Source of the DNA: an uncultured Veillonellaceae bacterium
GTDB taxonomy: Bacteria > Bacillota > Negativicutes > JARBTT01
Direction of reading: 5' to 3'
NCBI GenBank assembly: GCA_963805085.1
Contig: CAWDTA010000002.1
Location: forward strand, 64,001 to 128,000
DNA: 64,000 nt
A program made the position numbers and the translations under genes. Positions 35,305 through 56,820 of this stretch are shown here, in pieces (position 1 is the first letter of the stretch; every line of letters starts with the position of its first letter). A model generated the notes under the pieces. The model saw only the letters and a list, made by a program, of their open reading frames with translations, had not been told where the DNA came from and did not search any database.

Positions 35305-35354
35305 TACTAATCAAATTCCTTTCTGTAAAATAGAAAATATATGATCTTCATATC

Positions 35355-36434: not shown

Positions 36435-36458
36435 CCTTTTTATTCACCCACAAACTTT

Positions 36459-37304: not shown

Positions 37305-37381
37305 CTACCAAATCAACGAAAATACCCCTTATAAAATAAAACGCAAAGAAATATCCTAAGCCATTTCTTTACGATTTATTA

Positions 37382-38317: not shown

Positions 38318-38324
38318 CCACTAC

Positions 38325-39413
38325 CTATTCATTGTAATTGTGTACTTCAAAACCATGCTTTTCACATAATAAATCACGTTTTGCTGTTGCCAAATCTTCT
38401 TTTACCATCATAGAGCATAGCTCTTGCAATGTGGTTTTCGGCTTCCAGCCTAATTTTTTTTGAGCCTTCGTTGCATCCCCTAACAACAATTCTACCTCTG
38501 TTGGACGAAAATAACGTGGATCAACTTCAACTAAAACATTACCAGTTGCTTTATCAATACCTTTTTCTGCGATGCCTATACCCTGCCAAGAAATTTCTAT
38601 ACCAACTTCTTTAAACGCTAGCTCCACGAATTCTCTAACCTTATGCGTTTCACCAGTTGCAATAACAAAATCTTCAGCATGCTCTTGTTGTAATAACAGC
38701 CACATTGCTTCCACATAATCTTTCGCATAACCCCAGTCCCGTTTCGCACTTAAATTTCCTAGATAAAGCTTATTTTGCAATCCAAGATTAATTCTTGCAA
38801 CAGCTCTAGTAATTTTACGAGTAACAAAAGTTTCACCCCTACGTGGTGATTCGTGATTAAATAAAATACCATTACATGCATAAATGCCATAAGCCTCACG
38901 ATAATTTACTGTAATCCAATAACCATATAATTTCGCAACCGCATATGGGCTACGTGGATAAAACGGAGTAGTCTCTTTTTGTGGAGTTTCTTGTACTAAC
39001 CCATATAGTTCACTTGTAGAAGCTTGATAAAATTTAGTTTTCTTTTCTAATCCTAAAATACGAATAGCTTCAAGAATTCTTAAAGTACCTAATCCATCAG
39101 CATTAGCAGTATACTCTGGTGTCTCAAAAGAAACTTGAACATGACTTTGTGCAGCTAGATTATAAATTTCATCTGGTTGTACCTCTTGAATAATGCGAAT
39201 TAAATTAGCAGAATCAACCATATCCCCATAATGTAAAAAGAAACTTACATTATCCTCATGTTGATCCTTATATAAATGATCAATTCGATCCGTATTAAAT
39301 TGAGATGCACGTCTTTTAATTCCATGGACTTCATAACCTTTTTCCAAAAGAAATTCTGCAAGATATGCTCCATCCTGCCCTGTAATACCCGTAATCAATG
39401 CTTTTTTTTTCAT
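38325..39413 (-). CDS. gmd: GDP-mannose 4,6-dehydratase
   Basis: [50 protein letters not shown]. Confidence 0.97.
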
Positions 39414-39601
39414 AATAATCCCCCTAAAATTTAAAATAACTTATAAAGGTACTTTTCTCAAATAACCTTAATATACTATTATACACAAATCAAATACAAG
39501 AACTACCACCTTTATTTAATTGGCAATGAAATCCCCCCATAATAAATAAAAGAATCCTCCCCAATATAATCACTAACATTTCATAATATATTGCAATATC
39601 A

Positions 39602-40678
39602 CTAAGGAACTAACAATTTAATCACAGGTACTTTTTTAAGAATACAAACAAAGAAAGAACTCAGCAAAGTAATTGCAACTGTTGTTACTGGAATGAATAC
39701 TGCAGGATTATAAGTGTAGCCATTCAACTTAAAACCCAAAATGCCTGAATCAAGTATTGCCATAACTAATAAATGCACAAGATATATACCAAAACTTAAC
39801 TTACTACTAAAATAATTTATGATATTAACAACCACTTTAAATTTATCAATTGATAGATTATTATTAATATAAATAACAACAATAATAAAACTAATAGTCA
39901 TAAAAACAATATTCATGGATAAATAACCGTAAAAAAACTCATCTAAAATTCCATTATTTGATACGGTCATATAATAAGTAGAAATCATAGTAAATAAAAC
40001 ATTACTGACAAACACCAACAGCGCTATTCTATAACATTCAATAGAAACTTTGTACAAACTATCGATATACATACAACGTAATTTATACCCAACAATTAAA
40101 TACCCTAAATAGCCACTACCAAATTCCAAATGAACACCTACTGGATACCCAAATTTAGATAAAAGCGGAAAAACGCAATAAAACCAAAACCAAATGCTAA
40201 TAAAATAATTAATATTTATTTTATTAGCATTACAAATGTAAATATTTATTATTGGTAATATTAAATATATCCCAATAATTGTATAAAGAAACCACAAGTG
40301 ATATGCATTTGATATTTTTCCATTCAAAATATTTTAAAATAAACCTAAAACATCCAAACTTTGATCATTCCAATAGACAAAATACAAACTATATATAATT
40401 GACCACCCAATTAAAGGTATCACTATTTTAATCACTCTTTTATATAAAAAAGCTTTTAAATTATTATAATCAGATTGCTTGCCTAACATTAATGCACCTG
40501 TTAACACAAAGAATAAAGGTACACAAATTCTTGAAATAGAATCATAAAAATTACTAAACCACCACCACTGTTCAGTAATCTCATTATATCTAAAAGCATT
40601 TATACATGCCACATGCTGTAGTATTACTAACATAAAAGCAATCGTTCTAATTAAATCTAAAACAAAAATTCTATTCAT
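39602..40678 (-). pseudogene. Acyltransferase-3 (WecH/YiaH-like) with a single in-frame TAA
   Basis: LDLIRTIAFMLVILQH, RICVPLFFVLTGALML, YHLWFLY, SFGIYLVH; both halves are in the same frame, separated by TAA at 40334-40336. Confidence 0.85.
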
Positions 40679-40824
40679 AAAATACCTACCTAATAAAATT
40701 AGTTGCACTATTTATACCGATTTGCAATATTTTTCGCCAAATCTTGAATTGACATTTTAGAACATTCCTACCCTCCATAGGCCCAAATAACAAGTAACAT
40801 TGCTACGAACCAAAAGGACATACA

Positions 40825-41910
40825 TTAAAAATTTGTTAAAAACCACCTTACTTTTTTTAACATTTCAATTGCTTTATTAGGCAAATTTCTTTTCATAAAA
40901 CGCTTAACTGAATATTTTAAATTAAGTTTTTTCCAATTTACGATTGTTTCAATTACTGTTTTTTCCCTAATGATTCTTATAATTATAGGTGCAGCAATAA
41001 AATTAAATATTTTTTCTTTATCCTCATGCCACTTTTCAATGCCATTTTGAATAGTCCTACGTGCATTATTTTGCACATTCATAACATCATTAAAATCAAT
41101 TTCAACAGGATCTTCTAATGAAAATAAATACCCATTTTCACCATGTTTGATATACTCATTCATTGTTGGTGCATCAATTGCTATTACAGCTTTCCCCATA
41201 GCCATAGCCTCTAAAAATGAAAAGCCAATTCCTTCTGTCAATCGAGGAGCGATATAAATATTATATTTATTCATTTCTGCAATATATTCATTTCTCGTTG
41301 TAAACCACGAACTATATGTTATATTAAATCGTTCCTCATCTACCTTACTTGGTACTAAAAATTTATGTTCCGGATCCATAGCTTTATGAATATGTACTTT
41401 ATTAATTTTTTGACTACCTATGAGATTTTTTATTATTTTCCAATTAAACTCCTCGCGCCGATTCCAAAAAAACAATGAATTTTCTTGTTTTATCACATCT
41501 TGTGGTTTTATATCAAATTTGTAATCCGGAAAATATTGAATATAAAAAGATTGAAATCCCATTTTGCATGTCTTCGCATGCAATGTTCTACTAAAATTAA
41601 CAATTTTAACATTTACGATATCTTGCCAAAATTGCAGTGGTGCTAATATACTTGCATCATACATAGGAATAAAAATAATATTTGTACATTTATCTCTGAT
41701 AGTATTTACTGCTTCCGGATAAATATTTTGCCAAAAAATCACTGCATAATAATTTTCATCAATCTGGCTTACATCTAATGTTTCTCCACTACACCAACTC
41801 ACATCCCATATAACTTCAACAATATATTTTTTCTTTAAAAAATTAATAAAAAACTCACTTGATTTTGTTTTTTGATGATAAGAATGATCTATAAACGCAA
41901 TTTTTTCCAT
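40825..41910 (-). CDS. GT4-like glycosyltransferase
   Basis: APRLTEGIGFSFLEAMAMGKAVI, PTMNEYIKHGENGYL. Confidence 0.85.
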   Translation of the reverse strand: MEKIAFIDHSYHQKTKSSEFFINFLKKKYIVEVIWDVSWCSGETLDVSQIDENYYAVIFWQNIYPEAVNTIRDKCTNIIFIPMYDASILAPLQFWQDIVNVKIVNFSRTLHAKTCKMGFQSFYIQYFPDYKFDIKPQDVIKQENSLFFWNRREEFNWKIIKNLIGSQKINKVHIHKAMDPEHKFLVPSKVDEERFNITYSSWFTTRNEYIAEMNKYNIYIAPRLTEGIGFSFLEAMAMGKAVIAIDAPTMNEYIKHGENGYLFSLEDPVEIDFNDVMNVQNNARRTIQNGIEKWHEDKEKIFNFIAAPIIIRIIREKTVIETIVNWKKLNLKYSVKRFMKRNLPNKAIEMLKKVRWFLTNF

Positions 41911-41933
41911 AAACTTCAACCTTTTTATTTATA

Positions 41934-43046
41934 TTATAATCCAAGACGTTTTCTTTGATAATATTCTACAACACCATATGGCAGAATCATTTTTATCATT
42001 CTACGCCATGACATTCTTTTCTTAACCTCATTCGAAGATACAAAAACATCACGCTTATCAATAAAATTTTTTAATAACCATTGAATTAGATATTGTTTTT
42101 CTATTTTTGTATTCTGCAAATCAGGTATTAATTTACTAAGTATTTCACAAAACTGTTCCCGATTAAACTTATTTTTCCATCTTAATTCTACAAACGCTAA
42201 AGCGTCCTCCTTAGACAAGCCATAGTGATACTCTACTAGAATATTACACATATTGTCAATAGAAACAGCTTGTTGTATTGCTGAAGCTCCAACAATTTCA
42301 TAATAGTAAACAGGATTTTTCACTTCACATCCTATAAAATTATTATCAATTAATTTCAACTGCATTTTAAAATCAGCAGCAATTGTATATTTCTCATCAT
42401 AATAGCCAATTTTTTCATACGCTTCATGAGAAATAAACATCGTTCCATGGTTACATGGACTTAATTCAAAAAATGCCGATCCATCTATAAACTTAGAAAC
42501 ATGTGATCCAATAGGAGTACCATCCTCTTTAACTACTATAGCTTCTCCATAAGAAAAATCAGCTTTATATTCCAACAATGATTGAACAGATTCTTCAATC
42601 GTATTCTTGGAATACCAATCATCAGAATTTAAAATTGCTATAAAATCTCCAGTTGCTAAAGACAGTCCCTTATTCATTGCATTATAAATTCCAGTATCTT
42701 TTTCCGATACATAGTAGTCAATAGCATTTTCATATTTTTTTATAATATCAAGCGTGCCGTCGGTACTACCACCATCAACTACAATATATTCGACATTATT
42801 ATACTTTTGATTGAGGACTGACTGAATCGCTCTTTCAAGTTTAGACGCCCTATTAAAAACTACAGTAATCACACTCACTAACGGTTTTTCTTTGTTTCTT
42901 TCTTTAAATTTTCCTACTAGTCGTAATCCACCTTCTGCCTTTCGTAAATAGTCAGTAAGTGGATATCTTAAATATTTACCACAAACATGATTAACCGCAA
43001 CATTAGATTCATATAATACAATAGATTTCTGCGTGGAATACCCCAT
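41934..43046 (-). CDS. GT2 glycosyltransferase
   Basis: EGGLR, PLVSVITVVFN, VDGGSTDGT, GIYNAMNKG, LNSDD. Confidence 0.88.
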   Translation of the reverse strand: MGYSTQKSIVLYESNVAVNHVCGKYLRYPLTDYLRKAEGGLRLVGKFKERNKEKPLVSVITVVFNRASKLERAIQSVLNQKYNNVEYIVVDGGSTDGTLDIIKKYENAIDYYVSEKDTGIYNAMNKGLSLATGDFIAILNSDDWYSKNTIEESVQSLLEYKADFSYGEAIVVKEDGTPIGSHVSKFIDGSAFFELSPCNHGTMFISHEAYEKIGYYDEKYTIAADFKMQLKLIDNNFIGCEVKNPVYYYEIVGASAIQQAVSIDNMCNILVEYHYGLSKEDALAFVELRWKNKFNREQFCEILSKLIPDLQNTKIEKQYLIQWLLKNFIDKRDVFVSSNEVKKRMSWRRMIKMILPYGVVEYYQRKRLGL

Positions 43047-43085: not shown

Positions 43086-44756
43086 TTATCTTTTTCGCAC
43101 GCTTTCTATTTTACGCTTTAGTGCTTTAATCCACCAAGATATAGTAAACATTTTTTTGCGTTCATTTTTTAACCATTCATGCATTCTAGCCTTCTTTATA
43201 GTGATTCTATTTAGAGTTTTTTGCAACAAATTTTTTTCTTCTTCAATCTTATTTATTCTTTCTTGCAAAGCAATACTTGATTTACGTTCATTTATTAACA
43301 AATCTCGCTCTGATACAAGTTTATCTAACCACTCTTGCATTCCAGCCTTCTCTATGGTGATTCTATTTAAAGTTTCTTGCAACAAATTTTTTTCTTTTTC
43401 AAGTTCATTCATTCTTTGCTGAGAAATAATACTCGATTTGCATAACAACTCCGCTAAAGCACTCCCCACTTCGGGGAATATAGTTGTTACTGGAGGTATA
43501 TCCTTCTGAGTAAATTTAGTTTGTTTTATTAAATCAAAAAACAACTCACCATAACTTGCAGCTTGCCTAGATTGAGCAAAGAACTCCTCGGCACATCTGC
43601 GGCAATTATCTCCTAAAGACCTCACAAATAAAACTTCTGCTAACTTTTCTGCGAATAAACCTGTATCTTTTAAAGGAACTATATATCCAGTTTCACCATT
43701 TAAAATGAAGTCAGGCATCCCTCCAAAATCAAATGCCACCACTGGAGTGCCACAAGCAAAAGACTCTAAAATAATATTTGGTAAGTTATCTTCTAAGGAT
43801 GGTAAAGCAACTACATCCGCAGCTGAATATGCTAAGGCCAATCTTTCATCATTATCAATAAATCCCATGGCGACATAAGGAATATCCAGTTTTCTTAAAT
43901 CTTCTGACTCCTGGCCAAAAGTCAGTATCGCAATTTTTTGTTTTCCAATTGATTCCTTAAGTTCACTTCTTTCTTTTAAATCGTTCATTGCTGCTAACAG
44001 CTCCAAAAATCCTTTTCTACGTTCACCATGATTTTCGGCACCAAATAAAATAACTTTAGTATCTTCTGAAAAGTTAAACGTCTGTTTAGCTTGCTTTTTA
44101 CCATATGGTCTAAAAACATCTAATTCAACAGAATTAGGAATAACTTCAACACGGTTATTTTTAAAAACTGCACTTTTAGTTGCACATTCCGCCAACCACT
44201 TACTCGGTGTAACAACAACTAAATCTTTAGGCATATACTTAACTTTTGCCTCTAAAAGAACTCTTGGAAGATTTAATGTATTTGATTTCATCTGAGGGCA
44301 TTTATTACAATCAACTAAATAACGATCACATCCATGCACATAATGACATGCCCCTGTCATTGGATTTTGATCATGCAATGTCCAAACCAATGGTTTTTTA
44401 ACGTAGTCTAAATCTGCTATTGCCTCTAAAGAAACAAAGCTAGCAATCCAATGTAAATTCACTAAATCATAATCATAAAGTAATTCTCTAAAATCAAAAT
44501 TTAAACTTGGATACATAAAAGAAAGCATTGTACTTCCTTGAAATATATTAGAATAAAAATTTTCTTGAGCAATATTTTCAATTAACAAATTATTAATTTC
44601 AGGCGCATTTATTTGTTTAACATACTCTAAATTTGTTTTTTTATATTTTACAAATAAATCTGCAGCTATGTCCCTTTGCCTTAATGCTTGTCCTAACCGC
44701 AATGCAGCCCGTGCTGCTCCACCATAATCATTAGTACTAAGTAAAGCAACCTTCAC
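43086..44756 (-). CDS. GT4 (WcaC-like) glycosyltransferase with C-terminal duplicated coiled coil and amphipathic tail
   Basis: GGAARAA, NLHW, WTLHD..TGACHY...C..C..CP, DNLPNIILESFACGTPVV; 52-aa-period repeat; TISWWIKALKRK tail. Confidence 0.88.
   Translation of the reverse strand: MKVALLSTNDYGGAARAALRLGQALRQRDIAADLFVKYKKTNLEYVKQINAPEINNLLIENIAQENFYSNIFQGSTMLSFMYPSLNFDFRELLYDYDLVNLHWIASFVSLEAIADLDYVKKPLVWTLHDQNPMTGACHYVHGCDRYLVDCNKCPQMKSNTLNLPRVLLEAKVKYMPKDLVVVTPSKWLAECATKSAVFKNNRVEVIPNSVELDVFRPYGKKQAKQTFNFSEDTKVILFGAENHGERRKGFLELLAAMNDLKERSELKESIGKQKIAILTFGQESEDLRKLDIPYVAMGFIDNDERLALAYSAADVVALPSLEDNLPNIILESFACGTPVVAFDFGGMPDFILNGETGYIVPLKDTGLFAEKLAEVLFVRSLGDNCRRCAEEFFAQSRQAASYGELFFDLIKQTKFTQKDIPPVTTIFPEVGSALAELLCKSSIISQQRMNELEKEKNLLQETLNRITIEKAGMQEWLDKLVSERDLLINERKSSIALQERINKIEEEKNLLQKTLNRITIKKARMHEWLKNERKKMFTISWWIKALKRKIESVRKR
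43171..43439. repeat. Internal direct repeat (about 113 bp, 156-bp period) in coiled-coil coding region
   Basis: 43171-43283 is similar to 43327-43439; both encode KSSI..(Q/E)R.N..E.EKNLLQ.TLNRITI.KA.M.EWL. Confidence 0.85.
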
Positions 44757-44876: not shown

Positions 44877-47069
44877 TTATTCTACGCACCACTTACCTTT
44901 AATTTTATCATTGAGTACCCTTTCCCCATTACTCTCTATTTCCTGCAACGATACTATTTTTTCCATTTCATTTTTTTCTTTTAAAAGCTGAAAAATTTTT
45001 CCTCCACCTGTATAATCAATAGCAATATATGGTACTTGCAATATATTAGCAAACAATACCGAATGAAATCTCATACAAAGATTATATTCTGCTGATTGCA
45101 TATTTTGACTTATACTTTCAATCGTCGATAATTTTCTTTCTATATAATACTCATATCCTTGTAAATATCTTTCGGCGAAAGATAAATTAAAATCTCTATC
45201 GTCATTTCCAATAACAAAATTATGCATAGCATAAAAATGAGGAATTAAATTTTCTTTTTTAATTAAATATATAATATTTTGTGCAAGTCTTTCCTCAAAA
45301 TTTCTTTTAAAAACATCAAATTCTTCTGGACTTTTATTGCCTCTATATTCATATGTTATTTCCCTTAAAAAGCAAGCTAGCTTTCCCTTTTTGGGCTTTA
45401 TATCATTCAATTTATACTTTTTTATAAACTGAACTGCTGGATCGCCAATATTATGCAAATTAAGCTCTGAAATCCCAATTTTTTTAGCATAAATTACAGA
45501 AGCCTCATCTCTCAAATTCACCTCGTTGGCAAATTCTAATATTTCTTTAACAGCTTGTTTTTTATCTTCCGTATACAATGGACCTATACCGCATCCATAA
45601 ACAGTTCTTTTTCTGCTATACTCTTTTGCAATAAAAAATGCCCACTGAATTAAACTCAGTTCTTCTAATTCCATAAGTGGGCCGCCGCCAACAACAACTT
45701 CATCTACTGAAGCACACCATTCAAAATATAGCTGACTATATACAGGAACAACTTTAACATTCCCATCAACATTCAATTCTCTCAAAGTTCGTTCAGTAAT
45801 GAATGGATATAATGAACTTACCCCTATACACAAATCTTTCCCATATTTTCTTTTATAGTCATCAATAACCTGCCCTAATATAGCTTTATCGCCAACAGTT
45901 TCTGTTCCATACCAACCAACAATCAAAATAGTAGGCGCACCAAACTCTTTCATATTTATTACAACATCATTTTTTTTACTTTTGTATGCTTGTATTGAAA
46001 AAAAGTTTTTATATTTATTTTGCTTTTCCAACACTTCTACTAATTGTTGCTTTGGGGCATCATGATAGTCATGAATACATTTTAAACAATATTTTTGTTT
46101 TATTGTTTCAAGTTCAATCAAATTTTTAGAATAAATATTTACGCCTCTATCTTGCAATAAATTTCCTATAACTGGTGATTTAGGTGCACAGTACGCCATA
46201 CCACCATGACAATCTAAATTTATTGCAACCCCATTTTTATATGGACATTCTATAGCTCGCTCTTCCCCCCTCAACATTCTCTTGATATTTCTATATGTAT
46301 TTAAAATCCCCTCATTTTTTTCATAACTATATTCCAATTTACTAAAAAACAGTTCTAGCTGATAAATTTCATCATCAGAAAAATTTCTAATGTACTGTTT
46401 ATTTTCTTCACAATCATTATCTAACCGATTAATGAATTCGCCTATTCTAAATCTACCTTCAATATTTTTTTCTTTCAAAAATAGTAATAATTCATCTAAT
46501 CCCCATACATTTTTTTTGGTCGCCGTGGCTCCAATTGTAAATTGAATTTTATTCTCTTGCAAATAAGAAATCACTTTCATTACTTGCTCAAAATTTCCTT
46601 TACGACCTCTATTTAAATCATGAAAAGTCCTAACACCATCTAATGAAAGCATAATAACAAAAGATTTTTCCTTTTGAAGCGATATACTACGAATTTTATC
46701 AATACTTGCTATAACTTTTTCAGGCGCTAGACAATTTGTAATTAAACTAGTTCCTTTCAAATTAGGCAAAGTCTCCATCGCACATAGAAAATACTCTGAT
46801 AAATCTTCAACTAAAGTAGGCTCGCCACCTGTAATTCCTATATGTTCTATATTTTCAAACAAAGAATCATCTAAAATTTTTTCAAATTCTTTCAGCGACA
46901 AATAAGAGTAATCCTTTTTCTTCCACACATTACACATCACACAAGCTGAATTACAAAAATTATTTACCTGATAATTAATTACTTTTAAATTATTAACTAT
47001 CTGTTTTTCTTGAGGTGTGGCTTTATGAAAATATTTATTACACAAATTTGAAAAAGCTTTTTTTATCAT
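44877..47069 (-). CDS. Radical SAM (with SPASM/twitch-like Cys cluster) fused to polysaccharide pyruvyltransferase (CsaB/WcaK-like)
   Basis: CNSACVMC, ITGGEPTL, SLDG..H..NRG; C..C..C..CLKC; then VGWYGTETVGDKAIL, VGGGPL, GCGIGPL, LRDEAS, GDPA, MRFHSVLFA. Confidence 0.88.
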   Translation of the reverse strand: MIKKAFSNLCNKYFHKATPQEKQIVNNLKVINYQVNNFCNSACVMCNVWKKKDYSYLSLKEFEKILDDSLFENIEHIGITGGEPTLVEDLSEYFLCAMETLPNLKGTSLITNCLAPEKVIASIDKIRSISLQKEKSFVIMLSLDGVRTFHDLNRGRKGNFEQVMKVISYLQENKIQFTIGATATKKNVWGLDELLLFLKEKNIEGRFRIGEFINRLDNDCEENKQYIRNFSDDEIYQLELFFSKLEYSYEKNEGILNTYRNIKRMLRGEERAIECPYKNGVAINLDCHGGMAYCAPKSPVIGNLLQDRGVNIYSKNLIELETIKQKYCLKCIHDYHDAPKQQLVEVLEKQNKYKNFFSIQAYKSKKNDVVINMKEFGAPTILIVGWYGTETVGDKAILGQVIDDYKRKYGKDLCIGVSSLYPFITERTLRELNVDGNVKVVPVYSQLYFEWCASVDEVVVGGGPLMELEELSLIQWAFFIAKEYSRKRTVYGCGIGPLYTEDKKQAVKEILEFANEVNLRDEASVIYAKKIGISELNLHNIGDPAVQFIKKYKLNDIKPKKGKLACFLREITYEYRGNKSPEEFDVFKRNFEERLAQNIIYLIKKENLIPHFYAMHNFVIGNDDRDFNLSFAERYLQGYEYYIERKLSTIESISQNMQSAEYNLCMRFHSVLFANILQVPYIAIDYTGGGKIFQLLKEKNEMEKIVSLQEIESNGERVLNDKIKGKWCVE

Positions 47070-48452
47070 TTATTTAACATCCTTATCTAAAACATCAAAA
47101 TTAGCACTAATATCCATATCAACTAATGCATTTAACTCCACACCATCTTTTCTTTCTAACACCCGAAAAGCAAAACCATTTAACTCTCTTGCATAAAAAA
47201 CTTCTTGATAATCTTCAATACCCACCACACCGCATTTCAAAAAATATACATCTTGTATAAATTTACACACAAAACTAAATTGAACTTTTATTATAGTTCC
47301 AGCCTTTACAAAAGGAATTCCATTTCCAGCTTTTGCAGTTCCACACCCCGTAACTTCTATTCCTGTTTTTGTTTTGATCAACATTCCAAAACGTACATTA
47401 GTGCAATTCTCAAGGAACTTTACTTTATAACTAAAAGTATATCTACGCCCAAAATTCAGTATATTTATAGGAACACCTTTTACCCCTACCATTTTATAAT
47501 CATAGATTTTTGCCTTTTGGTTTTCATATGAAACGACTTCATTTTTAATCAACAATGAATCATCGAAATATTCTTGATCAAAAACCACTTCCTCTTGCGT
47601 TTCCAAATTGAATTCATTAGTTTGTATAACATTTGATTGTTTTTCTTTTGGATTTTCAAAGACAATGTCTTTTTTTTCTTTCAGTTGTTGACGTATTTCC
47701 TTCACTTTTTCTTCGGGAGCAAACAACATTTTCTGATATAAATTAACTACTTTTTCACTTTTTCCTTCTAATAATTTTTCTCCTTGATCAATCCATATTG
47801 CCCTATCGCATAATTCTATAATACTGCTTCCTGAATGAGATACAAATAAAATCGTTTTTCCTTCATTTCTAAATTTATTTATCTTACCAAAACATTTATT
47901 CTGAAATAAATCATCACCAACAGATAATGCCTCATCTATGATAAGAATCTCTGGATCTACGTTAATTGCAACCGAGAATGCTAATCGTACAAACATTCCA
48001 CTCGAATACATTCTTACTGGCTGATAAATAAAATCTCCAATATCCGCAAACTTTACAATTGCATCAACTTTGTTCTTCATTTCTTCATGAGTATATCCCA
48101 TAATTGTTCCGTTTAGATATATATTTTCCATACCAGTCATCTCTGGATTGAAGCCCGCACCCAATTCTAATAACGCAGATATCTTACCACTCGTCTCAAC
48201 AATTCCAGATGTCGGTGTTAGTACATTTGTCAATATTTTTAATAACGTAGATTTTCCTGCTCCATTTTTTCCAATAATACCAATAATTTCACCTTTTTTT
48301 ATTTCAAATGAGATATTGTTTAGCGCATAAAAATTCTTACTATATTTTTTCCAAAACGGATTTAATGATTCTTTTAACCTATCAATTGGTTTATCATATA
48401 ATTTATAAATTTTTGATAAATTATCAACTTTTATTGCAATTTCATTATCCAT
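47070..48452 (-). CDS. wzt: ABC transporter ATPase with C-terminal Wzt_C carbohydrate-binding domain
   Basis: GKNGAGKSTL, LLELGAGF, YSSGMFVRLAF, DEALSVGD, VSHS; about 160-aa beta-rich C-terminal extension. Confidence 0.93.
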   Translation of the reverse strand: MDNEIAIKVDNLSKIYKLYDKPIDRLKESLNPFWKKYSKNFYALNNISFEIKKGEIIGIIGKNGAGKSTLLKILTNVLTPTSGIVETSGKISALLELGAGFNPEMTGMENIYLNGTIMGYTHEEMKNKVDAIVKFADIGDFIYQPVRMYSSGMFVRLAFSVAINVDPEILIIDEALSVGDDLFQNKCFGKINKFRNEGKTILFVSHSGSSIIELCDRAIWIDQGEKLLEGKSEKVVNLYQKMLFAPEEKVKEIRQQLKEKKDIVFENPKEKQSNVIQTNEFNLETQEEVVFDQEYFDDSLLIKNEVVSYENQKAKIYDYKMVGVKGVPINILNFGRRYTFSYKVKFLENCTNVRFGMLIKTKTGIEVTGCGTAKAGNGIPFVKAGTIIKVQFSFVCKFIQDVYFLKCGVVGIEDYQEVFYARELNGFAFRVLERKDGVELNALVDMDISANFDVLDKDVK

Positions 48453-48461
48453 AGTTTCCCC

Positions 48462-49271
48462 CTATAATACATCGGCAAAATGTGGACGTAATTTTTTAAA
48501 TGCAATTCCACCTATGAGCATTATTAATATAGTCACTACCCAATAATATAAAGAAAGCTCTCCATCTTGCCAAAACCATTTTTCATAAATAAACGAATTT
48601 CTATACCCTTCAATAATATAATAGCCTGGATTTAAATACAAAAAAGCAATATATTTTTCTGGTATCGTTTTTAAGCTCCAAAAAATAGGAGTTCCCCAAA
48701 ATCCAAATTGCAATATCATAGCAACAACTTGTCCTATATCTCTTAAGAATACAACTAATGCGGATGTCAACCAAGACAATCCTAAAAGCATACATATCAT
48801 TGCAAAAACATAATACACTACCTGCAAATTATATATTGTTGGCATATACCCATACAAAGCAAACATAAACAGCAAAATCAAAACAAAAAATATATGTACA
48901 ATAAATGCTGAAATAATCTTCACTATAGGTAACAAGCTAACTCTAAATACAACTTTTTTTACAAGATAACTATTTTCCACTATTGAATTTGTCGCCGAAC
49001 TTAAACTATCTGAGATAAAAAACCACGGAAACATTCCACAGACCAGCCATAAAATAAACGGAAAATTATCAACAGGTATAGATTTAAAACCTACTTGGAA
49101 AACAAACCAAAAAATCAGTATAGTAATTGTTGGTTGAATAAATGCCCACATAATGCCTAAATAGGATCCCAAATATCTTTGCTGAAAATCTTTTTTTGTC
49201 AATTCCCATAATAGTCTACGACTTCTTATTATATCAATTACAAATGATAAAAATAACTTTATATATCTCAT
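48462..49271 (-). CDS. wzm: ABC transporter permease
   Basis: KDFQQRYLGSYLGIMWAFIQP, LVKKVVFR, TPIFW, LNP, RPHFADVL. Confidence 0.93.
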   Translation of the reverse strand: MRYIKLFLSFVIDIIRSRRLLWELTKKDFQQRYLGSYLGIMWAFIQPTITILIFWFVFQVGFKSIPVDNFPFILWLVCGMFPWFFISDSLSSATNSIVENSYLVKKVVFRVSLLPIVKIISAFIVHIFFVLILLFMFALYGYMPTIYNLQVVYYVFAMICMLLGLSWLTSALVVFLRDIGQVVAMILQFGFWGTPIFWSLKTIPEKYIAFLYLNPGYYIIEGYRNSFIYEKWFWQDGELSLYYWVVTILIMLIGGIAFKKLRPHFADVL

Positions 49272-49276
49272 TTAAC

Positions 49277-50122
49277 CTATCCTTTTATTTCTTTTAAATA
49301 TCTGACAACCGCATTCTGCCAACTAGGTAATCTATTAAATTCCTTATTATCTAAGCACTCCTTACTCAACCTAGAATTCAATGGTCTCTTTGCTTTCGTT
49401 GGATATGCAGAGCTTGGAATATGATTTACTTTTGTATTATAACCGGCTTGTCTGAATATTTCTTCTGTAAACTTCGCCCAAGAACAAATTCCTTCATTCG
49501 TTGCGTGATAAGTACCATATTTATCGCTAACTGCCATTTCGCATAAAAGCTTAGCTACATCAGCAGTATAGGTAGGGGAACCAATTTGGTCGGCAACGAC
49601 GTTGAGTTCTTGACGCTCTTTTCCTAGTCTAAGCATAGTTTTTACAAAGTTGTTACCATTGATACCAAATACCCAAGAAATTCGCATAATGAAGTGTTTT
49701 TCTAAGATAGCTTTGACTGCATTTTCGCCTTCAAGTTTCGTTTGTCCATAAACGCCAAGCGGGCCTGTTTTGTCATCGACTTCATAGAAATTTTCTCCTG
49801 TACCAGGGAAAACATAATCCGTACTGATATAAATCATTTTCGCATCAATAGCTTTACATACTTTTGCGATATTTTCAGTGCCATTTACATTAACCTTACG
49901 ACACTGTTCCGGTTCATCCTCCGCTTTGTCGACCGCTGTGTAAGCAGAGCAATGAATAACTACATCTGGCTCATAGTTTGTAATAAATTTATTTGTTGCT
50001 TCAAAGTCTGTAATATCAAACTCGGCACGCCCTGCACCTACACAATCAAGATTGCGTACGTTAAGTGCTTTTATCACATCATATCCTAGTTGTCCGTTTA
50101 CGCCAGTTACTAATACTTTCAT
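49277..50122 (-). CDS. rmlD: dTDP-4-dehydrorhamnose reductase
   Basis: VTGVNGQLG, AYTAVDKAE, ISTDYVF, YGQTK, DQIGSPT; probable start ATG 50122. Confidence 0.95.
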   Translation of the reverse strand: MKVLVTGVNGQLGYDVIKALNVRNLDCVGAGRAEFDITDFEATNKFITNYEPDVVIHCSAYTAVDKAEDEPEQCRKVNVNGTENIAKVCKAIDAKMIYISTDYVFPGTGENFYEVDDKTGPLGVYGQTKLEGENAVKAILEKHFIMRISWVFGINGNNFVKTMLRLGKERQELNVVADQIGSPTYTADVAKLLCEMAVSDKYGTYHATNEGICSWAKFTEEIFRQAGYNTKVNHIPSSAYPTKAKRPLNSRLSKECLDNKEFNRLPSWQNAVVRYLKEIKG

Positions 50123-50183
50123 ATAGACACTCCCTGAAAAATAAAATATACGACAAATGGGCGTATATGATACGCCCTTAATT

Positions 50184-51203
50184 TTATCTATTACTATACA
50201 TTTTTTCGTAGTAATCTTGGTATTCACCACTGATGATACGTTCCCACCAGTCTTTATTATCTAAATACCAGCGGATCGTTTTCTTGATGCCTTCATCAAA
50301 TAACGTTGTTGGTGCCCAGCCTAATTCTTTTTGCATTTTTGTTGGATCGATGGCATAACGCCGATCATGCCCTAAACGGTCAGAAACATATTCGATGAGG
50401 CTTTCATCTTTGCCTAATTCACGAAGGATCGTTTTTACTACTTCTAAATTCGTACGTTCGTTATGTCCACCGATATTATATACCTCACCAACTTTACCAT
50501 TATGGATGATCAGGTCAATTGCTGAACAATGATCTTCGACATATAACCAATCACGTACGTTTTTACCAGTGCCATATACAGGCAGCTTTTTATTATTTAA
50601 TGCATTCGCAATCATTAGCGGAATTAACTTTTCGGGAAAATGATATGGTCCATAATTATTAGAACAACGAGAAATCGTCGTTGGCAGTTTATAAGTACGA
50701 TTATAAGCTTGTACCACCAAATCAGCCGATGCCTTGGAAGCTGAATATGGACTAGAAGTATGTAGTGGTGTTTTTTCCGTGAAGAATAACTCTGGTTGAT
50801 CTAATGGAAGATCACCGTAAACTTCATCTGTCGATACTTGATGGTAGCGTTTAATACCGTATTTTTTACAAGCATCAAGTAATACACTCGTACCGATAAC
50901 ATTGGTTTGTAGGAAAATTTCTGGATTTTCAATAGAACGATCCACATGACTTTCTGCCGCAAAGTTAACGATGATATCTGGTTTTTGGGTTTCAAAAAGG
51001 TTATACACAAAAGCTCTATCCGCAATATCACCTTTGACAAAAGTAAAGTTTTGATTATCCATGACTGGTGTTAAAGTTTCCATATTACCAGCATAAGTTA
51101 ATAAATCTAAGCAGATTATTTTATATGTAGGATGTTGTTTGAGCATATAGTGAACAAAGTTACCACCAATAAAACCTGCTCCACCAGTTACAATTATTTT
51201 CAT
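50184..51203 (-). CDS. rmlB: dTDP-glucose 4,6-dehydratase
   Basis: TGGAGFIG, FAAESHVDRS, VSTDEVYG, YSASK, CSNNYGPYHFPEK. Confidence 0.97.
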   Translation of the reverse strand: MKIIVTGGAGFIGGNFVHYMLKQHPTYKIICLDLLTYAGNMETLTPVMDNQNFTFVKGDIADRAFVYNLFETQKPDIIVNFAAESHVDRSIENPEIFLQTNVIGTSVLLDACKKYGIKRYHQVSTDEVYGDLPLDQPELFFTEKTPLHTSSPYSASKASADLVVQAYNRTYKLPTTISRCSNNYGPYHFPEKLIPLMIANALNNKKLPVYGTGKNVRDWLYVEDHCSAIDLIIHNGKVGEVYNIGGHNERTNLEVVKTILRELGKDESLIEYVSDRLGHDRRYAIDPTKMQKELGWAPTTLFDEGIKKTIRWYLDNKDWWERIISGEYQDYYEKMYSNR

Positions 51204-51206
51204 AAT

Positions 51207-51773
51207 TTATTTCGCTCCCTCGTAAACAAAGTTTAAATTGGTACGTTCTTTTAACAATTGTGCATTTTTATCTTTTTCTGAAAGAATAAATTCACCTTCA
51301 CCCCATTCTACTCCGATATCTGGGTCATTGTATAGGATGTTACCATCACATTCTGGTGCATAGTAGTTATCTGCTTTATATTGGACTTCAACATCATCGG
51401 TCAAAGTAACGAAACCATGAGCAAAGCCTCGCGGAATAAATAATTGCTTTTTATTTTCTGCGGATAATTCAACAGCTACCCATTTTTTATACATAGGCGA
51501 ACCTTTTCTAATATCTACAGCAACGTCTAAGATAGCCCCTTTACTGCAACGTAGCATTTTGGCTTGGCACTTTGGATTCAATTGATAATGAAGTCCGCGA
51601 AGCGTACCTTTTTGCGCAGAGAACGATTGGTTATCCTGTACGAAATCACATTCAATTCCCGCTTCCGCTAATTTTGCTTTCGAATAACTTTCCATAAACC
51701 AACCACGATGATCACCGAAGACTTGCGGTTCTATAATATATACATCTTTTAACTTTGTTTCTGTTACTTTCAT
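51207..51773 (-). CDS. rmlC: dTDP-4-dehydrorhamnose 3,5-epimerase
   Basis: FGDHRGWF, QDNQSFS, LRGLHYQ, DVAVDIR, PRGFAHGF. Confidence 0.97.
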   Translation of the reverse strand: MKVTETKLKDVYIIEPQVFGDHRGWFMESYSKAKLAEAGIECDFVQDNQSFSAQKGTLRGLHYQLNPKCQAKMLRCSKGAILDVAVDIRKGSPMYKKWVAVELSAENKKQLFIPRGFAHGFVTLTDDVEVQYKADNYYAPECDGNILYNDPDIGVEWGEGEFILSEKDKNAQLLKERTNLNFVYEGAK

Positions 51774-51786
51774 CTATACTATCCCT

Positions 51787-52662
51787 CTATTTCTCTTTTA
51801 CTAGGTTAATCAAGTATTGCCCATAATCATTTTTCTTTACTGGCTCGGCAAGTTTTAGCACTTGCTCTGCACCAATATGCCCCATCCGGTATGCAATTTC
51901 TTCGATACAAGCTATTTTTAGGCCTTGACGCTGCTCTACTGTTTGCACAAAAGTAGAAGCCTGTAGAAGTGATTCATGCGTTCCTGTATCCAGCCATGCA
52001 TATCCCCTGCCCATTGTTTCCACTCGTAAATTTTTCTGAGCAAGATAGACCTTGTTTACATCGGTAATTTCTAGTTCTCCGCGTGCCGATGGTTTGATAT
52101 TTGCTGCGATATCAACAATTTGATTATCATAGAAATATAGACCAGTTACGGCATAATTTGATTTAGGTTCAGTTGGTTTTTCCTCTAAACTAATAGCTGT
52201 ACCCTGCTTATCAAATTCCACAACGCCATACCGCTCCGGATCTCTAACGTAGTAGGCAAAAACAGTCGCGCCATCCGTATTACTAGTTGCTCTTTGCATT
52301 GCCGATGCTAAAGTATGCCCATAAAAAATATTGTCACCTAAAACAAGTGCACAGCCATCATTGCCGATAAACTCTTTACCGATAATAAAGGCTTGTGCCA
52401 ATCCGTCTGGGCTTGGTTGTACCGCATACTGAATGCTGATGCCCCATTGACTGCCGTCTTGTAATAAAGCTCTAAACAATTCCACATCTTGCGGTGTTGT
52501 GATGACTAAAATATCGTTAATCCCTGCTAAAAGTAAGGTACTCAATGGATAATAAATCATTGGCTTATCATAAATCGGCATCAATTGCTTACTAACGACT
52601 TTTGTTAGTGGATATAACCGAGTTCCTGATCCACCTGCTAGTATAATTCCTTTTTTTATCAT
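51787..52662 (-). CDS. rmlA: Glucose-1-phosphate thymidylyltransferase
   Basis: [48 protein letters not shown]. Confidence 0.97.
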
Positions 52663-52716
52663 TTACTCTCTCTCCCAACACAAAAATTATTACAAATAAC
52701 AAAATATAGTGTTCTG

Positions 52717-54225
52717 CTAGTATGCACCTTTGCTGCCAAACACCACTCTGATTGTTTTAATAAGTAAAATAATATCCTGCCAAACTGACCAGTTTCTAAC
52801 ATACCAAGCATCTAAACGTAATCGACCAGTAAAATTTATTTCATTTCTTCCACTCACTTGCCATAGTCCAGTAATTCCCGGAACGGTTTGGCAAATAGTA
52901 TTGATATAATACCCCATATTCTTTCGCTCCCGAGGCAAATATGGTCTGGGACCAACTAAGCTCATACTTCCCTGTAGCACGTTAATAATCTGAGGCAATT
53001 CATCTAGGCTATATTTTCTCATCCAATTTCCCACTTTAGTTACTCTCGGATCAAAAGTTCGCAGTTTAGCAAATTCAGCCCATTCCTGATGAGCTTCTTC
53101 ATTCTGATTTAAATAATCTTTAAGTACTTTATTACTATTGATATGCATCGTTCTAAATTTATAGCATGAAAAATTTCTTTGTCCTCTTCCAATCCTTCTG
53201 GCAATATGAAATATAGGTCCTTTCGAATCATACTTTATCAAAACTACCAATAAAAAAAGAATTGGTAACACAAAAACAAATATAATACTTCCTATACAGA
53301 TATCAAACAAACGCTTAATAATTTTATTTATTGGCAGCTCTAAATTGTTTTTCGTTTTAAGCATGACCAATCGATCATCAATGAATCGCTCCGCTTCGAT
53401 ATTTGCAACTGGTATGCCAAACAAATCTGGAACAATGGTTAAATTTCTCACATAGGGCTGTACTCTTTGCATGAGAGATATCAGCTTTTCGCGTTCTAAG
53501 CCTGGAGTTGCAAGAATCACATCATTTACCTTACTATCAATAATTGCTTTTTCTAGATTTTCAAACGTTCCTATATGTGGATATTTCTGGATTAACGGAC
53601 GTTCATCATAATAGTCTTCTACCAGTCCAACAATTTTGTAGCCAATACCTGGCTCATTTTCAAATGTTCTAGCAATGATTTCTGCCGTTTTTCCAGCGCC
53701 TACAATGACAACTGGACGTTGCCATAAATTCAAAGTATGCAATATTTTTTTTGAAAATTGCCTAAATACACAAAGATAAAAAAAACTGAGGATCCATAAG
53801 GTCGCCATAAACAAGCGTGAAACAATAGCAGAACTTCCTACTAGATAAGTAATCAGAATAACCAATGCATTCACATAGATACAAGTTTTAAATAAAATTT
53901 CTGCACACTGCCAAAAAGGCATTCTTTTATTATACATATCGCCATAAGCAATAAATAAAATAAAGACAGTAGGAAATATAATATATGCGTAAATATCGCC
54001 GATATAGAGAATTGACGCATTGTTTCCTGACCATAAAACAATAGCAATATTTCTAATACTTTTTGCGCTTATTACTGCACAAATAATTGCAATATAATCT
54101 ACTACAATCAATAAAAATGGTGCTAAATAATAACTTAAATATTCTATTAATTTTTTTTGTTTATTTATTGCAACTGATTTTTCAAAGCCCACTACATACC
54201 TCATCCTCACAACTACTAATAACAC
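52717..54225 (-). CDS. wbaP: Undecaprenyl-phosphate sugar-1-phosphate transferase (WbaP type); start uncertain
   Basis: N-terminal TMs, KRLFDI, YKFRTM, DPRVT, SLDELPQ, MSLVGPRP, PGITGLWQVSGRN. Confidence 0.9.
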   Translation of the reverse strand: MLLVVVRMRYVVGFEKSVAINKQKKLIEYLSYYLAPFLLIVVDYIAIICAVISAKSIRNIAIVLWSGNNASILYIGDIYAYIIFPTVFILFIAYGDMYNKRMPFWQCAEILFKTCIYVNALVILITYLVGSSAIVSRLFMATLWILSFFYLCVFRQFSKKILHTLNLWQRPVVIVGAGKTAEIIARTFENEPGIGYKIVGLVEDYYDERPLIQKYPHIGTFENLEKAIIDSKVNDVILATPGLEREKLISLMQRVQPYVRNLTIVPDLFGIPVANIEAERFIDDRLVMLKTKNNLELPINKIIKRLFDICIGSIIFVFVLPILFLLVVLIKYDSKGPIFHIARRIGRGQRNFSCYKFRTMHINSNKVLKDYLNQNEEAHQEWAEFAKLRTFDPRVTKVGNWMRKYSLDELPQIINVLQGSMSLVGPRPYLPRERKNMGYYINTICQTVPGITGLWQVSGRNEINFTGRLRLDAWYVRNWSVWQDIILLIKTIRVVFGSKGAY

Positions 54226-54238
54226 ACATCAATAATAA

Positions 54239-56694: not shown

Positions 56695-56742
56695 ACCTTC
56701 ACCACCAGTTAGCATTTTTGCAAGATATTTAAACTTAACTAA

Positions 56743-56771
56743 AGAATAGGTGATTGTACTAGTAATGTCAA
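56743..56771 (-). promoter_or_regulatory. SigmaA promoter of the MNT-HEPN gene
   Basis: TTGACA-17 nt-TATTCT immediately after hairpin H2. Confidence 0.7.
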
Positions 56772-56777
56772 GCTCCG

Positions 56778-56820
56778 AAAGCAATTAGAGCTTGTAACAG
56801 ATACAAGCTCTAATTGCTTT
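56778..56820. terminator. Hairpin H2, 19-bp perfect IR
   Basis: AAAGCAATTAGAGCTTGTA-acaga-TACAAGCTCTAATTGCTTT. Confidence 0.8.

Follow-up and report, generated by a model that had tools for sequence, protein, structure and literature searches.

A widespread radical SAM–pyruvyltransferase fusion encoded beside wzt and its possible role in O-antigen capping

What might an enzyme that joins a radical SAM domain to a polysaccharide pyruvyltransferase be doing directly beside the exporter of a bacterial surface glycan? The question is raised by one gene in the window, by which we mean the whole stretch of 64,000 nucleotides analysed here, taken from a contig of an uncultured Veillonellaceae bacterium. 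An earlier note, made from the sequence, had suggested that this fusion installs the cap that licenses export. In the following, we examine the two halves of the protein, the family to which it belongs and its gene neighborhood, and then weigh the cap against other possible products.

Two predicted enzymes in one reading frame

The fusion gene (44877..47069, minus strand) is an uninterrupted open reading frame with an ATG start, encoding 730 residues, and both of its Pfam domains (Radical_SAM and PS_pyruv_trans) score above their cut-offs within this single frame. Modeled with AF2 as a single chain, the protein reaches a mean pLDDT of 90.3 and a pTM of 0.89. The gene follows wzt without a gap: at 47067..47072 (minus strand) the wzt stop abuts the ATG of the fusion (TAAATG), the minus strand around this junction reading ...GATAAGGATGTTAAATAAATGATAAAA, and a Shine-Dalgarno-like element (AAGGA) lies 10 nt ahead of the start. 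A scan for promoters and terminators gave counts no higher than chance. The earlier note had described the single 730-residue frame with both domains, this abutment, a CxxxCxxC motif and a complete CsaB/WcaK-type pyruvyltransferase, and each of these descriptions holds, the latter two as detailed below.

The radical SAM core (residues 34-182; 46524..46970, minus strand) matches Pfam Radical_SAM (PF04055) with 57 bits (cut-off 29.5). Its SAM-cluster motif is present as C39-x3-C43-x2-C46 (46932-46955), and the three cysteines are invariant in 35/35 aligned sequences, as are G81-G82-E83-P84, S142, D144 and G145 of the core. Beyond it lies a twitch-like segment (46077..46247, minus strand), recognized by its invariant cysteines and by superposition on BlsE and anSME. 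It contains C275, C294, C328 and C331, likewise found in 35/35 aligned homologs, with G289 four residues before C294. These extra cysteines, which the earlier note had called C-terminal, are real but sit between the two domains and not at the C terminus of the protein; as a set of four, they are consistent with one auxiliary cluster. The best NCBIfam match of this half is a twitch family (56.5 bits, below the cut-off of 170), and the Pfam SPASM profile has no match in the 730-residue protein.

Among solved structures, the half resembles SkfB, BlsE, anSME, MoaA and viperin, all with Z scores of 19-23 and a partial TIM-barrel fold. BlsE (PDB 7vob) fits best, with a Z score of 21.9 and an rmsd of 3.3 Å over 285 residues (model residues 26-339), and is also found by sequence profile (E 1.9e-11), while anSME superposes on model residues 27-351. 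BlsE is a radical SAM cytosylglucuronate decarboxylase and thus acts on a sugar. However, it shares only 15-16% identity with the fusion, lacks a fused transferase and works on a nucleoside sugar; the similarity seen is one of fold. The N-terminal half is best explained as a BlsE/anSME-like radical SAM domain carrying a predicted SAM cluster and one predicted auxiliary Fe-S cluster.

The C-terminal half (residues 381-691; 44997..45929, minus strand) was assigned by Pfam, NCBIfam and hhalign. Pfam PS_pyruv_trans (PF04230) matches residues 424-686 with 83.6 bits (cut-off 25.3) and covers profile positions 33-278 of 280. Compared with a CsaB equivalog from a Paenibacillus genome, this half aligns over 294 columns (hhalign probability 99.2%, E 2.3e-19), and R148, R306, H308 and K328 of CsaB fall on R520, R667, H669 and K691, which are all invariant in the family alignments. 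Mutagenesis described in sections of PMC10435577 ascribes PEP binding to R148, H308 and K328 (plus R306). The enzyme is placed in the same Pfam family as CsaB of Paenibacillus alvei, a ketal-pyruvyltransferase, with PEP-binding residues common to both. On the other hand, their identity is only 19%, CsaB lacks a radical SAM partner, and the fusion scores 76.6 bits against the CsaB equivalog (TIGR03609), below its cut-off of 213.1, so that it is not a CsaB ortholog. At the acceptor site, Y14 of CsaB aligns with the conserved Y387, whereas the fusion has W386 and T389 in place of Y13 and F16. Pvg1p, a solved pyruvyltransferase, showed no sequence link to this half at E <= 10, whether the query was one sequence or a profile of 34, and was not found with the whole-protein profile at E <= 1; it is also absent among the Foldseek and VIA matches listed, which has no bearing on the fold. 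We consider a CsaB-like, PEP-dependent pyruvyltransferase to be the best explanation of the predicted C-terminal domain, and judged by their conserved residues both halves look catalytically competent.

A widespread family and its GT4 partner

The rSAM-PvT fusion (radical SAM plus pyruvyltransferase) is a widespread, uncharacterized family. Across 185,579 species-representative genomes, 407 of the 490 pattern-matched stretches encode a relative, and the family spans at least eight phyla, with hundreds of species from Bacillota, Bacteroidota, Planctomycetota, Verrucomicrobiota, Cyanobacteria, Chloroflexota and Proteobacteria. The best 120 near-length matches (679-885 residues) cover 91-100% of the query, and a precomputed column lists both Pfam domains for 118 of them, P0016 and P0082 being listed with PF04230 only. 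Such two-domain coverage among near-length homologs far exceeds chance, and in an Atlas cluster of 339 members both domains occur in 98-99%. Pairs of separate rSAM and PvT genes are a minority (164 short matches; genome G032 has one such pair), and the suspicion raised beforehand, that homologs might mostly be two separate genes, is not supported, as the best 120 near-length matches cover both halves.

These data also speak to whether the fusion could be an artefact of assembly or annotation, or could contain one dead half serving as a scaffold. The occurrence of split forms (the 164 short matches and G032) and the CsaB equivalog score far under its cut-off lend this idea something, yet the query coverage of the best near-length matches, the uninterrupted frame, the invariant catalytic residues in both halves and the pTM of the one-chain model all argue against it, making it highly improbable. 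An assembly artefact in particular was rejected on the uninterrupted frame, the full-length homologs and the invariant residues.

We know of no chemistry or phenotype for any member of the rSAM-PvT family. The literature searched, to which the 2019 terminator census by Mann, Kimber and Whitfield in Glycobiology does not belong, yielded no description of the fusion; that census may already list the architecture among its predicted terminators. The word "radical" has 0 occurrences in a 2019 review on pyruvylation (PMC6801904).

The tightest partner of the fusion is a GT4 glycosyltransferase, encoded in the window by the gene that follows (43086..44756, minus strand; 556 residues, assigned by Pfam). 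A GT4 homolog lies downstream of the fusion in 63/80 loci; it is the very next gene in 51 loci, in 46 of which the gap is at most 50 nt, and it is part of the same polypeptide in 6 loci and in 35/35 of the longer homologs. These longer proteins (1304-3535 residues) are built as rSAM-PvT-GT4-TPR-GT2, some of them also with a methyltransferase. Even where rSAM and PvT are separate genes, the GT4 is retained. The conserved unit is a triad of rSAM, PvT and downstream GT4.

The GT4 of the window carries a tail (residues 446-556; nt 43089-43421) with a heptad pattern and a basic amphipathic stretch at its end. C-terminal extensions of about 100-240 residues past a core of about 410 residues are found in the window and in five related loci (L001, L002, L003, L009 and L071), and these tails are similar, basic and variable in length, whereas GT4 partners outside Bacillota and Cyanobacteria mostly have no tail (median 418 residues). 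A crude heptad test gave 33 windows for the tail of our GT4, against a shuffled mean of 2.35 but only just more than the highest shuffled count (32). The score was also positive for the tails of L001 and L071 and not positive for those of L002, L003 and L009. The fusion is located directly between wzt and a GT4 with such a tail in the window as well as in the nearest relatives. Terminators are placed on coiled-coil ruler proteins in the literature (portions of PMC11231755).

Linkage to Wzt and the surrounding cluster

Upstream of the fusion, wzt (47070..48452, minus strand) encodes an ABC ATPase (ABC_tran) with a C-terminal Wzt_C domain (residues 308-435; nt 47148-47531) that scores 80 bits against a cut-off of 30.4 and is the single Wzt_C match in the genome. 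It is preceded by wzm (48462..49271, minus strand), an ABC-2 permease assigned by Pfam ABC2_membrane. A Wzt-type gene is present in 51/80 fusion loci and, among the 55 evaluable loci (those in which the fusion has 5 kb or more of flanking sequence on each side), within 10 kb in 41. The linked genes mostly lie upstream on the strand of the fusion (48 of them; 21 within 100 nt). Wzt_C is matched at E <= 1e-3 in 44/51 linked Wzt proteins, 27 of which exceed the gathering score, and five of the six major clades of the family tree contain Wzt-linked members. An absence of linkage to Wzt_C, which the earlier note had named as a result that would refute its proposal, was thus not observed. As a control, 0/3 standalone PS_pyruv_trans genes in five genomes lie within 1.4 Mb of any Wzt_C; four of these five genomes have no Wzt_C other than that next to the fusion.

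The linkage has its exceptions. No wzt was found within 10 kb in 14/55 evaluable loci, for ten of which the whole genome was checked for Wzt_C. In one of these genomes, a Wzt_C is found on the contig of the fusion, 16 kb upstream of it; in three, Wzt_C is confined to other contigs; five have a single Wzt_C outside the fetched locus; and one, an Alteromonas, has no Wzt_C. Two loci (L062 and L004) show a Wzx-type flippase one to two genes upstream of the fusion, and the split-gene version in G032 lies in a cluster of nonulosonic-acid and Maf-like genes, without a wzt in 20 kb. Given the Wzx-type clusters, the G032 cluster and the genome without Wzt_C, the module is not restricted to caps read by Wzt. 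Furthermore, the C-domains of the Wzt proteins beside the fusion have a median identity of 15% as opposed to 57% for the NBD, and across phyla no column is conserved at >= 90%, so that nothing points to a cap pocket common to them. A sequence search with the C-domain of our Wzt found no relative in the PDB; homology therefore gives no guide to cap specificity.

The remainder of the cluster (assigned by Pfam, all on the minus strand) comprises a proximal part (49277..55147) with rmlD, rmlB, rmlC and rmlA (49277-52662), an initiating phosphoglycosyl transferase with Bac_transf (52717-54225) and a GT2 (54239-55147), and a distal part (33928..43046) with a GT2 (41934-43046), a GT4-like gene (40825-41919), a split acyltransferase-3 (39602-40708), gmd (38325-39413), an fcl-like gene (37382-38317), a second GT2 (36459-37304), a further GT4 (35355-36434) and manC (33928-35304). 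In agreement with what had been claimed beforehand, Pfam, applied to ORFs of >= 120 residues between 33.9 and 55.1 kb, detects no methyltransferase or kinase domain in the cluster. Among 50 Wzt-linked loci, 25 have no small modifying enzyme from five genes upstream to three downstream, whereas in 19 a methyl- or sulfotransferase is also present and could serve there as the actual terminator.

A terminal cap, a decoration or a soluble donor

At roughly even odds (about 0.5), we favor the reading that the GT4 and the rSAM-PvT fusion together build a non-reducing cap that is read by the LPS O-antigen transporter of the window. The fusion would then be a bifunctional cytoplasmic enzyme, forming one unit with the downstream GT4, and the triad would complete an undecaprenyl-linked polymer at its non-reducing terminus. 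The GT4, kept off the membrane by its coiled-coil-like tail, would add the last sugar; the pyruvyltransferase half would place a PEP-derived pyruvyl group on that sugar; and the radical SAM half might remodel the sugar or its pyruvyl adduct by hydrogen abstraction. The capped product would halt elongation and provide the epitope that the C-terminal domain of Wzt must bind before Wzm/Wzt exports the chain. The domains, their intact catalytic motifs, the conserved triad and the Wzt_C linkage are observed; that the group is terminal, how the steps are ordered, that Wzt recognizes the product and that a radical reaction takes place are inferred. The original proposal of the fusion as cap installer is partly supported: the fused homologs, the Wzt_C linkage and the PEP-binding residues stand in its favor, whereas the triad, the Wzx-type and Wzt_C-less loci and the unconserved Wzt C-domains qualify it. 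The GT4, overlooked in the earlier note, is the bearer of the ruler-like tail. Oxidation, epimerization and decarboxylation, the radical reactions put forward in that note, would all be candidates; the structure closest in fold, BlsE, is that of a sugar decarboxylase.

The order of genes in the E. coli O9a cluster is wzm-wzt-terminator-GT4. The terminator of E. coli O9a and Klebsiella O3, WbdD, is a kinase-methyltransferase that adds a non-reducing cap whose recognition by the Wzt carbohydrate-binding module (CBM) is needed for export, and it works with a GT4-type polymerase via a coiled-coil ruler (parts of PMC11231755 and PMC3482155). The two systems differ in that WbdD combines a kinase, a SAM methyltransferase and its own coiled coil, whereas the window pairs rSAM and PvT with a coiled-coil-like tail on the GT4, in a cap role that we only propose. 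A precedent for terminal pyruvate on an ABC-transporter-dependent O antigen is offered by WbbZ of Klebsiella pneumoniae O1b, which in vitro places pyruvate on the non-reducing end (PMC10629545). However, WbbZ is a standalone enzyme without a radical SAM domain, its transporter has no CBM and, according to the same portions of PMC11231755, its pyruvate is dispensable for export and chain length.

The strongest challenge to the cap is that the triad could make a non-terminal decoration, namely a pyruvylated and further modified side-branch sugar in each repeat unit or in the primer region, with the adjacency to wzt being a matter of operon layout and Wzt_C reading something else. Most characterized pyruvyltransferases do decorate repeat units on lipid-linked intermediates (sections of PMC6801904), and beside the Wzx-type flippases of L062 and L004 the module must act on a repeat unit; however, the last sugar of a repeat unit in a Wzx pathway is a non-reducing end too, so that these loci also fit a maker of terminal sugars. 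The genome without Wzt_C, the nonulosonic-acid cluster without wzt, the unconserved Wzt C-domains and the 19/50 linked loci with their own methyl- or sulfotransferase point the same way as the decoration. Against it stand a linkage to Wzt_C far above that of standalone pyruvyltransferases (0/3), the position of the fusion directly between wzt and a tail-bearing GT4, and a cluster in the window that offers no other terminator candidate although its Wzt has a CBM. On balance, we regard such a decoration as fairly unlikely.

Alternatively, the polymer may not be the substrate at all, and the fusion may act on a soluble activated sugar, turning an enolpyruvyl or pyruvyl adduct by radical C-C or C-O chemistry into a PEP-derived acidic donor that the GT4 transfers. 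BlsE, whose fold is the nearest among solved structures, has a sugar nucleoside as its substrate (parts of PMC3715490), PolH converts 3'-enolpyruvyl-UMP by a radical reaction (excerpts of PMC5365060), an obligate co-inherited GT4 is what a novel donor would need and GDP-sugar genes recur nearby. Nonetheless, we consider this unlikely, as CsaB and WcfO, which are characterized pyruvyltransferases of the family, require lipid-PP-linked acceptors (passages of PMC6801904), and the clustering of neighbors shows no nucleotidyltransferase specifically co-inherited with the triad.

Returning to the terminal cap, a bolder version of it would be a new cap class, in which an enolpyruvyl group or ketal on the last sugar undergoes radical bond making or breaking and is read by Wzt in at least five phyla. 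We hold this version to be decidedly unlikely; if it were true, O-antigen termination and export control would for the first time involve a radical SAM step. Candidate radical steps would be a PolH-like C-C cyclization to a higher-carbon acidic sugar, a BlsE-like decarboxylation or a reductive opening to a lactyl ether. The enolpyruvyl transferase PolA/NikO of the octosyl acid pathway is MurA-like and not a member of PS_pyruv_trans. In that pathway, the radical SAM enzyme PolH/NikJ takes a PEP-derived adduct on a sugar hydroxyl as its substrate and forms a new C-C bond (parts of PMC5365060). The likeness to the fusion is a functional analogy only, and the two enzymes are separate and work on a nucleotide, not on a glycan.

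The papers considered name few caps for ABC-transporter-dependent glycans, namely methyl, methyl-phosphate and Kdo, next to the non-essential pyruvate (PMC10629545 and sections of PMC11231755). To these, the family would add a cap that depends on radical SAM chemistry and derives from PEP, or at the least a new way of modifying a terminal sugar. For radical SAM enzymes that act on carbohydrates, the reaction would be of a new type. It also points to a likely new surface epitope and offers a testable link between one enzyme and an export checkpoint. In WbbB of Klebsiella O12 and in the O4 and O7 terminators, the terminator, the ruler and the polymerase GT modules are joined in one protein, with caps that include Kdo (portions of PMC11231755), and the fusion relatives of 1304-3535 residues share this all-in-one layout. 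The terminator modules of WbbB and the O4/O7 proteins belong to other families (GT99 and GT137 glycosyltransferases or kinase/methyltransferase), and the fusion relatives have TPR repeats in place of a coiled coil. These natural rSAM-PvT-GT4-TPR-GT2 mega-enzymes could serve as single-protein models for polymerization plus termination.

The fusion and its two halves

A single ORF of 730 aa with an ATG start (44877..47069, minus strand) joins a radical SAM (rSAM) domain to a pyruvyltransferase (PvT) domain, as the earlier note had read it; Pfam places Radical_SAM at residues 34-182 and PS_pyruv_trans at residues 424-686, both scoring above their curated cut-offs. In the minus-strand sequence, the ATG indeed directly follows the wzt stop codon, and an AAGGA element lies 10 nt upstream of it. 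The Wzt encoded immediately upstream matches ABC_tran and the carbohydrate-binding module (CBM) Wzt_C, and is itself preceded by the Wzm permease (Pfam). The AlphaFold model of the whole fusion is a confident single body (mean pLDDT 90.3, pTM 0.89).

In an alignment of 35 sequences that are 40-54% identical to the fusion, the invariant residues include the SAM-cluster cysteines (C39, C43, and C46) as well as G81-G82-E83-P84, S142, D144, and G145. Of the extra cysteines formerly described as SPASM/twitch-like, four (C275, C294, C328, and C331) are invariant and, going by the alignment, would fit one auxiliary Fe-S cluster of the twitch-like kind rather than a two-cluster SPASM, while Pfam SPASM has no match in the protein. 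All its NCBIfam radical SAM matches fall far under their cut-offs. Among the four solved enzymes that superpose best on the N half is BlsE, a radical SAM enzyme with a sugar nucleoside substrate (Z 21.9, rmsd 3.3 Å, 285 residues, model residues 26-339). The others are anSME (Z 20.4, rmsd 3.2 Å), SkfB (Z 22.8, yet rmsd 8.4 Å), and MoaA.

The C half is modeled as a GT-B fold, with UDP-GlcNAc 2-epimerases at Z about 21; a sequence search found no solved structure for it. Compared with a bona fide CsaB from a Paenibacillus genome (TIGR03609, 274 bits), a 34-sequence profile of this half aligns over 294 columns (probability 99.2%, E 2.3e-19). Invariant R520, R667, H669, and K691 fall on CsaB R148, R306, H308, and K328, respectively. 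PMC10435577 describes R148, H308, and K328 as critical for PEP binding by mutagenesis and predicts a PEP-site role for R306 from docking; by this correspondence, the PEP site of the fusion is intact. On the acceptor side, CsaB Y14 aligns with a conserved tyrosine (Y387), whereas W386 and T389 replace CsaB Y13 and F16. The fusion is not a CsaB orthologue, since it scores well under the CsaB equivalog cut-off.

A widespread family and its glycosyltransferase partner

The architecture is real rather than two genes joined by chance of assembly: the best 120 near-length matches (679-885 aa, 91-100% query coverage) all span both halves, and both domains occur in 98-99% of the members of a 339-member ESM Atlas cluster. 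Of 490 stretches matched by the search patterns across 185,579 species-representative genomes, 407 code for a relative. The 80 loci retained represent Bacillota, Bacteroidota, Planctomycetota, Verrucomicrobiota, Chloroflexota, Cyanobacteria, Proteobacteria, and Thermodesulfobacteriota. Split forms are a minority: 164 short matches reach E <= 1e-10, and many of them come from short contigs. Some rSAM-only and PvT-only pairs share one value for the longest contig and may therefore be neighbors on a single contig. Databases list the proteins under the generic names 'polysaccharide pyruvyl transferase family protein' and 'radical SAM protein'. The literature searched holds no description of the architecture; a 2019 census of termination chemistries, outside that search, may mention it.

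As the most constant neighbor, a homologue of the window's GT4 glycosyltransferase (43086..44756) occurs in 63/80 loci. It is the +1 gene in 51 of them, with a gap of at most 50 nt in 46 of these and an overlap in 28; the gaps are lower bounds because the most upstream ORF starts were used. In six further loci, it is part of the fusion polypeptide, and in three it appears as split ORFs. Five loci without a counted GT4 have no downstream sequence available, and L033, L035, and L074 have no such partner. GT4 domains occur in all 35 homologues of 1304-3535 aa; TPR repeats are found in most of these, and several contain GT2, methyltransferase, or sulfotransferase modules as well. Given this constancy, the GT4 fusions, and the order rSAM, PvT, GT4 retained in the split-gene version, the conserved unit is a triad of rSAM, PvT, and GT4.

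The GT4 partners of the window and its nearest relatives (L001, L002, L003, L009, and L071) have ruler-like C-terminal extensions of widely variable length with similar basic ends. By a crude heptad score, coiled-coil character is supported in L001, L071, and the window, where the score barely exceeds the shuffled maximum, and is not supported in L002, L003, and L009. The tails end in a basic motif like Ser-x-Ser-Trp-Lys-x-Thr-Lys-Pro-Leu-Arg (43089-43170 in the window), which may be a membrane-binding or partner-recruiting helix. Near residues 128-154, the partner family conserves His-Asp ... Gly-x-Cys-x-Tyr ... Cys ... Cys-x-x-Cys-Pro (alignment A3), possibly a metal site.

Some Sporomusaceae/Anaerospora versions (L015 9584-12151, P0006, and P0010) are about 840-855 aa long; their N-terminal piece matches the C-methyltransferase C-terminal domain (PF08484), and no wzt is nearby. 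As a lead only, an 81-member ESM Atlas cluster (rank 5, score only 0.77), commonest in Myxococcota, fuses Radical_SAM, SPASM, and GT4 and could be another radical SAM-glycosyltransferase architecture.

Transporter linkage and a proposed role at the glycan end

Linkage of the homologues to Wzt_C, whose absence the earlier note had named as a refutation, is found in most loci. A Wzt-type ATPase gene is present in 51 of the 80, including 41 of the 55 with at least 5 kb on both sides of the fusion; it lies upstream on the same strand in 48 and less than 100 nt away in 21. All 51 proteins measure 395-465 aa; 44 match Wzt_C at E <= 1e-3 (27 above and 17 below the gathering score), and seven do not. 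As a control, five genomes with large contigs were inspected: 1.4-3.3 Mb separate each of their three standalone pyruvyltransferase genes from any Wzt_C, and in four of the five, the sole Wzt_C is the fusion-adjacent one. In the window's genome, too, there is just one Wzt_C.

PMC11231755, PMC9445017, and PMC3482155 describe systems in which a non-reducing-end cap halts elongation, the Wzt CBM must bind this cap prior to export, and a ruler protein with a coiled coil carries or recruits the terminator. Direct observations here are the triad, its linkage to the transporter, and the competent motifs of both halves; by analogy, we infer the terminal position, step order, Wzt recognition, and radical chemistry. 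The tailed GT4 would add the last sugar, the PvT half would modify it using PEP, the rSAM half would remodel that product, and Wzt_C would read the result. Precedents are PolH, a radical SAM enzyme whose substrate is a sugar adduct derived from PEP (PMC5365060), and WbbZ for terminal pyruvate on an O antigen (PMC10629545).

Several observations speak against the cap model. No wzt is nearby in 14 of the 55 evaluable loci, and a Wzx-type flippase lies 1-2 genes upstream of the fusion in L062 and L004. Ten genomes of the wzt-less group were checked: in one, a Wzt_C lies on the same contig, 16 kb upstream; three carry Wzt_C on other contigs only; five have a single Wzt_C outside the fetched locus; and one Alteromonas genome has none. 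On the family tree, 13-14 changes of the Wzt label are required (at least 11 forced); five of the six major clades include Wzt-linked members, and the giant-fusion clade of Verrucomicrobiota has none. The fusion-adjacent Wzt C-domains are highly divergent (median 15% identity, no column conserved at >=90%), only those of L001 and L009 resembling the window's (50-52%). In G032, a relative of the window's organism, the triad belongs to a cluster of nonulosonic-acid and Maf-like character. Both contexts would be accommodated if the triad added and modified a non-reducing terminal sugar on a lipid-linked glycan; this sugar would then cap the polymer in ABC-type pathways and end a repeat unit in Wzx-type pathways.

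In G032, the split triad (L088, G032:C1:394000-413900) stands among NeuB, a CMP-sugar transferase, DegT, GNAT, an MptE-like (Maf-type) protein, and a methyltransferase, and is possibly part of a nonulosonic-acid or flagellin glycosylation island.

The stretch between wzt and the fusion repeatedly encodes small modifying enzymes, namely sulfotransferases, methyltransferases, PhyH dioxygenases, hexapeptide acyltransferases, and a 313-aa family without Pfam match. A methyl- or sulfotransferase lies up to five genes upstream or three downstream in 19 of 50 Wzt-linked loci, and 25 have none of these enzymes. Sulfotransferase genes, often with a PhyH-type dioxygenase, lie a few genes from the fusion in L008, L017, L024, L026, L028, L032, L034, L036, L044, L047, L055, L061, L062, L066, and L074, both with and without wzt, and may further decorate the same terminal sugar. 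The about-313-aa family (neighbor cluster 6, 12 loci, among them L010, L011, L013, L014, L018, L073, and L076) is often directly upstream of the fusion.

The O-antigen cluster of the window

GT9 heptosyltransferases, GT8 enzymes, and a secretin show that the window's organism is a diderm with LPS. The glycan cluster (minus strand, from 55147 down to 33928; Pfam) comprises an initiating phosphoglycosyl transferase, rmlABCD, wzm, wzt, the fusion, the tailed GT4, other enzymes of the GT2 and GT4 families, gmd, an fcl-like gene, and manC, and looks like an O-antigen locus that depends on an ABC transporter equipped with a CBM. Pfam finds no methyltransferase or kinase within it, in agreement with the earlier note, and the triad is its only candidate terminator. 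Only one of 40 relatives of the organism (G032, with a split pair of adjacent genes) has a match, and the sole same-genus genome (84% complete) has none. This patchy occurrence and the low GC of the cluster (0.27-0.33 versus 0.38-0.43 in the flank) fit a horizontally exchanged O-antigen locus.

Within the cluster, an Acyl_transf_3 O-acyltransferase (39602-40708, minus strand) is split into ORFs of 124 aa (profile 4-101) and 241 aa (120-323) and probably represents a broken gene. An IS21-type pair (Mu-transposase-like, 30421-31854; IstB, 31851-32594) lies next to an ABC exporter ORF at the distal edge of the glycan region (29087-32594 in all); this ORF matches only ABC_membrane profile positions 153-274, the last part of the profile, suggesting shortening by the insertion. 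Between the O-antigen cluster and the LPS-core genes lies a gene for a 265-aa nucleotidyltransferase (Polbeta/NTP_transf_2) with an NTase_sub_bind/HepT-like domain (55987-56784, minus strand), a toxin-antitoxin-like make-up. A polysialyltransferase-family (PF07388) protein (58303-59397, minus strand) adjoins the GT9 and GT8 LPS-core glycosyltransferases.
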